A DNA stretch of 64,000 nt from Obrimoposthia wandeli (taxonomy: Eukaryota), in contig CDROCS010002621.1 in the NCBI GenBank assembly GCA_977020255.1, positions 62,001-126,000 on the forward strand. Direction: 5' to 3'. Made by a program: the position numbers and the translations under genes. Under the pieces are notes generated by a model. The model ran no database searches, was not told where the DNA came from, and was given only the letters and a program-made list of their open reading frames with translations. Positions 32,301 to 34,253 of the stretch are shown piece by piece; the first letter of the stretch is position 1, and the number at the start of each line of letters is the position of its first letter.

Positions 32301-32858
32301 ACAACTCCATATCACCCTCAAACTGACGGGTTAGTAGAAAGATTTAATAGAACCCTCGAAGATATGATGGCATCATACACAAACAACAACCAAACAGATT
32401 GGGATTTACACATACCTCCATGCCTTTTTGCATATAGAACATCAGTACATGCATCCACAGGAGAAACACCTTTTTATCTTATGTTCCTCAGAGATCCTCA
32501 AATGCCTATTGACCTAACATTACTACAACCAACTACACAATACTTAGAAATACCTGAATATAAAATAGAAATTAGAGAAAGAATAAAACTAGCATTCGAA
32601 AAAGCTAAACTATTTGTAAAAAACATACAAGAAAATTACAAAGAATATTATGATAGAAGAACTAAGCCATTAAATATAAAAAGTGGAAGTAAAGTGATGA
32701 TTCACAATCCACAAATTAATGTAGGATTATCACACAAATTATCAAAACCATACAAAGGACCATATACAGTCATTAGTACCAACGGAACCAACATAACAGC
32801 TAAACTAGATAATGAACCAAAATCAAAAGAAATAAGAGCACATATAAACAGATGTTGA
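29236..32858 (+). pseudogene. pol: pol: aspartic protease, reverse transcriptase, RNase H, integrase (copy A)
   Basis: Protease [62 protein letters not shown], YIDD. RNase H: TDASGYALGAVL, YSTIERECLAI. Integrase: zinc-binding H..GGH...CKTCEIC, MDVMGP, TDKGPEF, GLVERFNRTL (after a frameshift about 32290), KGPY. In-frame TAA at 30793. Confidence 0.97.
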
Positions 32859-32936
32859 GAAATACCTGAGGAGAATACAAAAGTAAAAAGTCACAAATAT
32901 AACTTAAGATCAACTAATGATAATACAATTCTACAA

Positions 32937-34253
32937 ATGTTGACAATAAAAAACTCACAAAAACAAAATAAAACTATTTTGAGTCATCAAACCATAAATA
33001 CAATAAAAATGTCAATAAAAGAAATTGGTAAAATAATGATGTTATTGATAATATATTTTACAATAAAATATAACCTACTGAAAGTAAACGCAGCAAACAT
33101 AAATGACAATCAATCAATCATACAACAACAAACAAATAAATACGACTCAACAACTCATCTCATAAAAAATTTTTGCTTAATAACAATAATACCTGAAATC
33201 ACATCAATAAAGTTAAAAATTTCTCTTCATACAAACAAAACAGGAAATGTGCAAATCACACAAACAGATAGAAAACAAAATATAATTATTTCAGGAATAA
33301 AATCACAAAAATATACAATACCATTTTTAAGAACAGAAACACAATATAAAATAAGAATTAAGTCGAAATTAAAAAATATAACAATCTATGAAAGAATTAT
33401 AGAAACTCACATATACCTAGCATCAATATTAAAAACAACAGCAAAATATATATCAAAACATAAAATAATGATAAAATGGGAATTTCAACTAAAAATAGAT
33501 GACTTAGATAAAGCCCTCATTAGAATTAGATATAGAGGACATAATGCTAATTTTTGGAAAGACTCAGAAAAACAATTAGAAAATACACAAACTAAAACAA
33601 ATTTAACCATAGAAAATATAAGATATCCGGAGAAAATAATAATGGATAATAGAGAATGCGTAATCACTAATAAACCAATAATGTACAGACAATGGAGTCA
33701 AAAGTTTGAAAGTTATAAAAATCTAACAAAATTAACAATTTTAGGAAATAAGATATCCAAACTATATCAACCTACAATTTTTTGTGGTCGTTGGTCAGCA
33801 GTAAAAATTAAGAAATATGTTAAAGAAACAACCAAAAAACAAATGCTACATACCACAGCATTAACATCAAAGATTTACAGAATTACAAATCAAGTTGAAA
33901 TTACGGAGAAAATAAGAATTAAATTAAAATTAAAAACAACAAAAACAATATCCTATAAATCATTTAATAAAAGTTTAAAAATACACTATGGTAAACAAGA
34001 ACATTCAAGGAATGAAGATAAAAAAGAACTTATAATAATAGTTATAGTAATCGAAATAATTACATTTATAAATCAAATATCATGGAGAATTTTAATTTTG
34101 AAACATACAAAAATGATAGAAACAAAACAACGAAAACACTTTTGTGGCCCCCCAGGCCCTTTTACTATTTATATTATTCCCAAGGATGAGAATTCTTCAG
34201 AATTATCCATAAATACTGTAATAGAAAATAAGAAAAGAAATATAACACAATAA
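32937..34253 (+). CDS. Element-encoded putative type I membrane protein with FN3-like beta-sandwich domains (438 aa)
   Basis: Uninterrupted ORF. Hydrophobic signal-like segment IGKIMMLLIIYFTIKYNLLKVNA; FN3-like motifs YTIPFLRTETQYKIRIKS and IMIKWEF...IRIRYRG...FWK; several N-x-S/T sequons; C-terminal hydrophobic stretch LIIIVIVIEIITFINQISW. The FN3 call is motif-level inference only. Confidence 0.55.
   Translation: MLTIKNSQKQNKTILSHQTINTIKMSIKEIGKIMMLLIIYFTIKYNLLKVNAANINDNQSIIQQQTNKYDSTTHLIKNFCLITIIPEITSIKLKISLHTNKTGNVQITQTDRKQNIIISGIKSQKYTIPFLRTETQYKIRIKSKLKNITIYERIIETHIYLASILKTTAKYISKHKIMIKWEFQLKIDDLDKALIRIRYRGHNANFWKDSEKQLENTQTKTNLTIENIRYPEKIIMDNRECVITNKPIMYRQWSQKFESYKNLTKLTILGNKISKLYQPTIFCGRWSAVKIKKYVKETTKKQMLHTTALTSKIYRITNQVEITEKIRIKLKLKTTKTISYKSFNKSLKIHYGKQEHSRNEDKKELIIIVIVIEIITFINQISWRILILKHTKMIETKQRKHFCGPPGPFTIYIIPKDENSSELSINTVIENKKRNITQ

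Follow-up and report, generated by a model that had tools for sequence, protein, structure and literature searches.

gB-type envelope genes occur widely among the retrotransposons of animals. A survey from 2026 (PMC13524379) describes GAG-ENV-POL errantiviruses from Platyhelminthes, Bryozoa and Nematoda that share their gene order, fusogen type, LTRs and occurrence in many near-identical copies with the element reported here. Entry is left open by that survey, which states the mechanism of the gB-carrying errantiviruses to be unknown and notes that HSV gB requires gD, gH and gL in addition. The planarian element Burro/GYPSM1 (PMC6431247) likewise encodes a single polyprotein in which env lies in frame between gag and pol; its env resembles mononegavirus fusion glycoproteins, and it has captured accessory domains. 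LTR elements of bdelloid rotifers (PMC5408684) resemble the present one in that a DEDD exonuclease and small transmembrane ORFs follow pol. In the MDG1 group, a non-Env transmembrane protein, sORF2, serves the cell-to-cell spread of a gypsy element (PMC11952523), and further context is found in PMC6338049 and PMC11410931.

The element described here lies in a 64,000-nt stretch of the Obrimoposthia wandeli assembly (GCA_977020255.1, contig CDROCS010002621.1, positions 62,001 to 126,000), which we call the window and to which all coordinates refer; every part of the element is on the plus strand. It is a Ty3/gypsy LTR retrotransposon, with protease (PR), reverse transcriptase (RT), RNase H (RH) and integrase (IN) in that order at 29221-32855 (Pfam matches above cut-off) and with direct LTRs in other copies. 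The gag region (23471-24968), which shares its frame with env in other copies, is broken in the window copy, where its sole Pfam match is a weak zinc knuckle (E 0.91). The Gag-Env junction, an internal signal-like segment and the 5' part of a gB-like (Monjiviricetes) fusion glycoprotein follow at 24969-25912 (PF24664, E 2.8e-18), and agree with other copies up to 25912. At that point env is interrupted by a secondary insertion of ~2.06 kb with 40-nt tandem repeats (25913-27971, no strand assigned), possibly a solo LTR from another family. Its flanks are adjacent in another copy, on which they overlap by 5 nt, and we read the overlap as a target-site duplication. The 3' part of the glycoprotein, which ends in C-terminal hydrophobic segments, lies at 27972-29305 (PF24664, E 4.7e-56); it is frameshifted in the window copy and shares its frame with PR in others. 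Within pol there is a stop in RT at 30793 and a frameshift near 32300. A truncated 3' LTR, preceded by a purine tract, is present at 36384-36858 and matches both LTRs of other copies, while no 5' LTR of this copy was found within the 64-kb window. With a broken gag, an interrupted env, a stop in RT, frameshifts and only one LTR, the window copy is dead.

Other sequences surround it. Older pol remnants at 20155-22581 are ~80% identical to the element and are interrupted by ~1.3 kb of other sequence. The decayed 3' part of a related element, with remnants of tail and exonuclease (68-74% DNA identity), occupies 37870-40259, and behind it an LTR-like start is seen near 40652. A host exon resembling an ADAM metalloprotease prodomain is present at 42111-42722 (Pep_M12B_propep, E 0.05).

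The integrase frame of the window copy (32277-32858) terminates with HINRC-TGA, the TGA being at 32856-32858. A first-pass annotation made from the window alone had noted that this frame runs on without further stops into a 438-aa ORF, had placed a YNLR motif after the TGA, and had suggested that the stop is a mutation; all three observations hold. The same frame continues for 464 codons past the TGA up to a TAA at 34251-34253, and the 438-aa ORF, whose ATG is at 32937, lies inside it. YNLR occupies aa 14-17 of the 464-aa frame and is kept in 13/13 aligned rows. Among the 30 best loci, codon 32856 is a stop solely in the window's own copy and sense in 29/29 other close copies, and the terminal stop at 34251 is kept in 29/30. 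On a broader set, from which nine own or duplicate loci had been removed, the codon is sense in 83/85 genome stretches (including 21 with less than 75% identity and two or more places entered twice), the two stops being in decayed copies. In two public runs from one sample, a letter other than the window's at 32856 accounted for 99.9% and 98.7% of the summed contig depth.

A scan of the 1.35-Gb assembly gave 91 scored matches among 8676 candidates, so that the family has at least 91 copies. Because the post-integrase frame is kept in 91/91 of these scored places, at 92-100% identity, it is not a chance frame. One copy spans ~13.9 kb. In four of the eight copies compared, the two LTRs (1.0-1.3 kb) show 97.3-99.1% identity (two other copies gave shorter matches and two gave none), and we conclude from this identity that the family was active recently.

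In 10/10 fetched copies with long open frames, integrase and the tail behind it are in one frame, and in several of the ten, env reads into PR and gag into env. At one locus, read from overlapping stretches, gag through the stop of the tail protein, which we call X, forms an uninterrupted frame of 2889 codons; old diverged copies likewise join integrase and tail. The family thus encodes a single ~2890-aa frame consisting of Gag, gB-like fusogen, PR-RT-RH-IN, linker, signal-like segment, ectodomain, transmembrane helix (TM) and short tail. Its gB/chuvirus-like env (PF24664) lies between gag and pol, the arrangement by which PMC13524379 recognizes GAG-ENV-POL gB-type errantiviruses. The earlier suggestion that the element encodes two surface proteins is borne out at the level of prediction, the two being the gB-like fusogen (PF24664) and a type I membrane protein behind integrase. 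That account lacked both the single gag-env-pol-X frame and the clade-wide slot with exchangeable ectodomains described below.

Two separate accessory frames lie downstream of the polyprotein. ORF138 (34429-34845) matches no Pfam family; it is 96-100% conserved in the young subfamily and was not seen in the loci examined of a second subfamily, B. It is followed by a DEDDh, ISG20-like exonuclease of ~391 aa (35104-36225; PF00929, 33.3 bits against a cut-off of 24; ISG20, E 1.5e-9), in whose translation the D-E-D-H-D residues are seen and whose N-terminal ~155 aa have no family assignment. As for the content of the assembly, it contains many bacterial contigs (such as C372, C665 and C253) and, on contig C5352, another animal COX1, which uses the usual invertebrate code. 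In the multi-copy COX1 of the assembly, AAA reads as Asn (3/4 informative columns), ATA as Ile (5/9) and TGA as Trp, which we take to be the flatworm/echinoderm code. Together with a GC content of ~30% and the Burro-like second family described below, this code makes a free-living flatworm the likely host.

A protein search with RNase H, integrase and tail returned 305 proteins, the best 120 of which were listed. In a quick tree of 35 rows, the best 14 of the 305 (P0004-P0017, 13 of them from ENA assemblies) group with the window family and with a second family of the same genome, family 2 (16 rows, SH-aLRT 100), and the window family is sister to P0016 (SH-aLRT 87). PF24664 precedes the protease in the same chain in 7/14 of these database relatives; the others are without env, most of them starting within pol. 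Pfam detected Gag domains in P0014 (Retrotrans_gag), in P0017 and in family 2 (zf-CCHC in both). A hydropathy of at least 2.2 over 19 residues occurs after integrase in 14/16 clade rows versus 3/106 other listed gypsy matches, and most clade rows have two hydrophobic segments there, the last one 24-131 residues from the end. The database relatives have no stop between integrase and X, and 12/14 have a Y-x-L-R motif within 80 aa after integrase. Nine relatives, picked by eye, contain one to three ~85-aa repeats with paired cysteines and an L-x5-Y core. A different, Cys-rich ectodomain is present in P0010, P0014 and P0015, and P0005 has no TM, from which it follows that a fibronectin type III (FN3) fold is not required in this position. 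The ectodomain of P0017 is assigned to neither type. The layout of P0016 is that of the window protein, including a CSKWS at the corresponding position (pairwise similarity z 2.2); against the tails of 13 relatives, the similarity of the window ectodomain was not significant (z at most 2.7). As judged from hydropathy, the clade as a whole is marked by a predicted membrane protein behind integrase whose ectodomains are exchangeable.

Several relatives carry further domains. Extra retropepsin-like domains lie directly behind integrase and ahead of the membrane protein in P0005, P0006, P0008, P0011, P0012, P0013 and P0014, and P0006 and P0011 have ankyrin repeats as well. The gag-env-pol polyprotein P0016 (HBK71150.1) is filed at NCBI under a Flavobacteriaceae MAG; its DNA is probably animal sequence that was binned with bacteria. 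P0046 is the first branch beyond the clade and shows a weak match to an Ig-like domain (Ig_3, E 0.024) together with a TM behind integrase. Family 2 (contigs C76, C6390, C6901 and others) is a giant, Burro-like family with one ~5300-aa frame in the order Gag, gB-like env, PR-like, BIR, RING, PR, RT, RH, IN and two dual-specificity phosphatase domains (DSPc). Its RT-IN is 43-52% identical to that of the window element; it has four hydrophobic segments, and one TM region weakly matches orthoreovirus p10 (FAST; E 0.04-0.12).

In the window copy, X begins behind the integrase tail and linker (32859-33023, aa 1-55 of the 464-aa frame, including YNLR). Kyte-Doolittle hydropathy in a 19-residue window gives two peaks. 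The one at aa 56-74 reaches 1.5 in the window and 1.9 in another copy and marks an internal signal-like segment (33024-33092, aa 56-78), whose end, V-N-A, fits the (-3,-1) rule; V76 is kept in 16/17 rows and A78 in 14/17. The signal-like segment noticed in the first pass is thus present, although it is internal to a polyprotein and not the start of a gene of its own. The other peak (aa 391-409, 2.2; 2.24 before rounding) agrees with the TM expected earlier, a predicted helix at 34029-34103 (aa 391-415) with a central Glu and basic residues behind it. This helix is kept in both subfamilies and is weaker than those of the relatives (2.2 vs 2.5-3.5). Between the two peaks lie ectodomain domain 1 (33168-33419, ~aa 104-187), domain 2 (33420-33833, ~aa 188-325) and a Thr/Lys-rich stalk (33834-34028, aa 326-390); the cytoplasmic tail with the family's stop follows at 34104-34253. 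Taking signal segment, single TM and inside basic residues together, hydropathy and charge predict that X is a type I membrane protein.

Domain 2 contains the CGRWS motif (aa 309-313; C309 in 26/29 rows, W312 in 25/28, S313 in 28/29). Since C267 (29/29 rows) and C309 are the only conserved ectodomain cysteines, Cys309 probably pairs with Cys267. The motif had been likened to the WSxWS of cytokine receptors, and here only its presence and conservation stand: it reads C-x-x-W-S, likewise in P0016, and kinship to class I cytokine receptors was rejected, as WSxWS is missing and so is the four-cysteine domain (domain 1 has only Cys106, in 1/20 rows). A search for homologues among host receptors found none, and no donor gene was found. 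The cytoplasmic tail has a PPGP motif behind the predicted TM (15-18 of 19-22 rows per column), which is also seen in P0007 and P0009 and which seems to depart from the Box1 pattern of cytokine receptors.

We estimated dN/dS by the Nei-Gojobori method, pooled between subfamilies (18 vs 8 copies; the pairs are not independent, and decayed copies raise the ratios). Values were 0.16 for integrase, 0.07 for the linker (aa 1-50), 0.54 for signal plus domain 1, 0.26 for domain 2, 0.62 for the stalk and 0.21 for TM plus tail. The post-integrase tail is thus under purifying selection (0.07-0.62 by part between subfamilies). Inside the young subfamily, the ectodomain gives 0.66-1.03. Subfamily B (eight loci) is mostly 86-97% identical in integrase and 64-77% in the tail, and its exonuclease is 40-47% identical although the integrases are mostly over 86%. 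Between subfamilies, dS climbs from 0.21 to 1.9 toward the 3' end, a rise suggesting that the 3' module has been exchanged. The ectodomains appear to diverge and swap faster than integrase, fitting the tendency of host-facing proteins.

The first-pass annotation had also seen FN3-like motifs in X. This idea held up moderately for domain 1, failed to rise above shuffles for domain 2, and found no support in Pfam or PDB searches with the family alone. The 464-aa frame has no Pfam match at all, and PF00041 in particular is not matched by the window X at E up to 1; below the gathering score, it is matched by 1/48 family members (E 0.13) and by 3/11 rows of a profile, A3 (best E 0.038). A3 consists of nine clade relatives and two family rows. 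Against the PDB it matched neogenin (E 2.6e-4), Dscam (E 1e-3) and others, 30 listed rows at E up to 10, which we take to be FN3-bearing proteins throughout; its rows were chosen by eye for the FN3-like motif, and the result is therefore biased. The PDB search with the family alone gave no FN3 match. A relatives-only profile, from which the window rows were excluded, aligned with FN3 domains of the genome at E 5.7e-4 in hhalign; the hhalign matches span 25 columns, mainly the E-F strands, at a probability of 1%. Domain 1 of the window scored above 100/100 of its own shuffles, with 12.7 bits against the FN3 profile and 7.9 bits against the relatives-only profile, and for each of two profiles 7/8 full rows beat all 100 composition-matched shuffles. 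The L-x5-Y core, that is, the E-F loop Leu and the F-strand Tyr, is kept in domain 1 (L157 in 24/25 rows, Y163 in 23/25) and is invariant in 11/11 hand-picked rows. A B-strand Trp is found at the expected place in domain 2 and not in domain 1. With a motif-anchored repeat profile, the whole window ORF was equalled by 48/500 shuffles. In the ESM Atlas, which counts as one source, fn3 clusters ranked first in both searches (0.88-0.93; whole ectodomain 0.93) and the ten best named matches were all fn3; recognition was 1871-1875, under the tool's mark of 2300. AlphaFold returned a pLDDT of 35 twice, and the fold searches were uninformative, favoring neither a beta-sandwich nor another fold.

FN3 identity of the ectodomain is therefore likely but unproven. 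We hold with good confidence that domain 1 is FN3-like; for domain 2, possibly an FN3-like domain with an insertion, the chances are even. Alternatively, the ectodomain could have some other beta-rich fold, its likeness to FN3 being a chance short motif in a sequence rich in K, I, N and T. The failure of Pfam and PDB searches with the family alone, the 25 columns at 1% probability and the lack of a Trp in domain 1 are what this alternative would predict, but it leaves unexplained why 7/8 rows outscored every one of 100 shuffles with each of two profiles and why relatives share the L-x5-Y core and match FN3 proteins. We consider it unlikely.

For the synthesis of X, we infer membrane threading and cleavage of the single chain. 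The internal signal after Gag would direct the fusogen into the ER lumen, and the fusogen's anchor would bring Pol back to the cytosol; the second internal signal, after integrase, would then make the X ectodomain luminal, and cleavage by signal peptidase would release X as a type I membrane glycoprotein, one-to-one with the fusogen. The chain would in this way pass through the ER membrane in the manner of a flavivirus polyprotein, with Gag and Pol cytosolic. Both internal signals end in N-A and have a suitable residue at -3, and N-glycosylation sequons number 6 in the 314 aa of the X ectodomain versus 5 in the 1209 aa of Pol. The C-terminal end of the fusogen has two hydrophobic segments (hydropathy 2.2 and 1.7); if Pol is cytosolic, only one of them can cross the membrane, which casts doubt on the threading model. 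Such a product would pose a puzzle of assembly: a single chain would unite Gag, the fusogen, Pol and another membrane protein, and Pol would have an anchor on either side. The integrase fusion could also be incidental, with a spliced message, or one started internally, as the usual source of X. ORF3s of LTR elements typically come from spliced messages (PMC5408684), and here an acceptor at 32491, followed by an ATG in frame, is among the two most pyrimidine-rich of 394 candidates, while M61 is kept in 16/16 rows. This acceptor, however, sits in a conserved integrase motif whose Phe/Leu codons make it T-rich anyway, and neither 83/85 genome stretches nor the database relatives have a stop between integrase and X. 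We judge a separate message very improbable as the normal source of X; it could run alongside polyprotein synthesis.

As to function, the reading that we prefer, at a little under even chances, is that X accompanies the fusogen, either on particles or at the surface of the producing cell, and provides attachment or cell-cell adhesion while gB fuses. X is a candidate fusogen partner in that it has a fixed slot, is present in nearly every clade member, is under selection and would be made in step with the fusogen. Other class III fusogens, such as rhabdovirus G and baculovirus GP64, act alone, which counts against the need for a partner. X might instead play no part in entry and work on the producing cell, where a captured receptor-like protein could block superinfection or, as a decoy, damp host defense or signaling. 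The clade does gather host-modulating domains (BIR, RING and DSPc in family 2, ankyrins in P0006 and P0011, the ISG20-like exonuclease here), as does Burro with its BIR, BCL2-like and ankyrin motifs (PMC6431247); moreover, unrelated ectodomains occupy the same post-integrase slot, and X, P0007 and P0009 have PPGP behind the TM in common. Yet X lacks the hallmarks of cytokine receptors, no host receptor homologue was found, and the membrane protein in the slot is near-constant (14/16 clade rows) while enzymatic cargo comes and goes; we regard host modulation as somewhat unlikely.

The module could also serve topology or packaging above all, its post-integrase signal being a second membrane tether for Pol at the budding site and its ectodomain a passenger or an aid to fusogen folding. 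An Env between Gag and Pol cuts Pol off from Gag, no part is more constrained than the linker (dN/dS 0.07), and the hydrophobic segments are common across the clade while the ectodomains cannot be aligned. A passenger, however, would hardly explain the constraint on domain 2 (dN/dS 0.26) with its two kept cysteines, or the one to three repeats with paired cysteines that relatives keep, and the fusogen's own anchor would presumably already tether Pol. This role seems improbable to us. Returning to X as the partner of the fusogen, we tentatively propose, with clearly less than even confidence, a clade-wide two-part entry system in which a class III fusogen and a swappable FN3-like attachment glycoprotein come from one membrane-threaded polyprotein with Pol between them. 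To our knowledge, two-part entry by a fusogen and a separate attachment glycoprotein has until now been found only in true viruses. If the proposal is right, a swap of the module behind integrase would alter the target cells, for example flatworm stem cells. Should X turn out to modulate the host, retrotransposon cargo of this kind would nonetheless be previously unreported.

Compared with its closest described relatives, the element shares much and differs chiefly behind integrase. Burro exceeds 30 kb with an ORF of ~5000 aa, versus ~13.9 kb and 2889 aa here (compared by description only), and its BIR, MATH, ankyrin and BCL2-like cargo is absent from the window's ORFs by Pfam; the available text of that account (PMC6431247) names no membrane protein or FN3 after integrase. 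The Burro-like family 2 falls in the same RT-IN clade as the window element. For the gB-type errantiviruses, the main text of PMC13524379 is without the words "fibronectin", "FN3" and "exonuclease" and, in the passages covered, only chromodomains are named C-terminal to integrase. The bdelloid elements (PMC5408684) differ in having separate ORF3s, a DEDDy exonuclease and a paramyxovirus F-like env, and the available text of their description is without "fibronectin". sORF2 is short, FAST-like and found in elements without Env (PMC11952523), whereas X is a predicted type I protein with a ~310-aa ectodomain beside a full fusogen. The FN3 adhesion receptors neogenin, DCC, Dscam and NCAM share the type I layout with X, their PDB and Atlas likeness being weak and partial. 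In the literature covered we found no FN3-like or other type I membrane protein behind integrase; supplements, Repbase or the extended data of Grohme et al. 2018 may annotate such a protein. The gag-env-pol order and the gB-type fusogen are already known, and the constant post-integrase membrane protein seems to be new.
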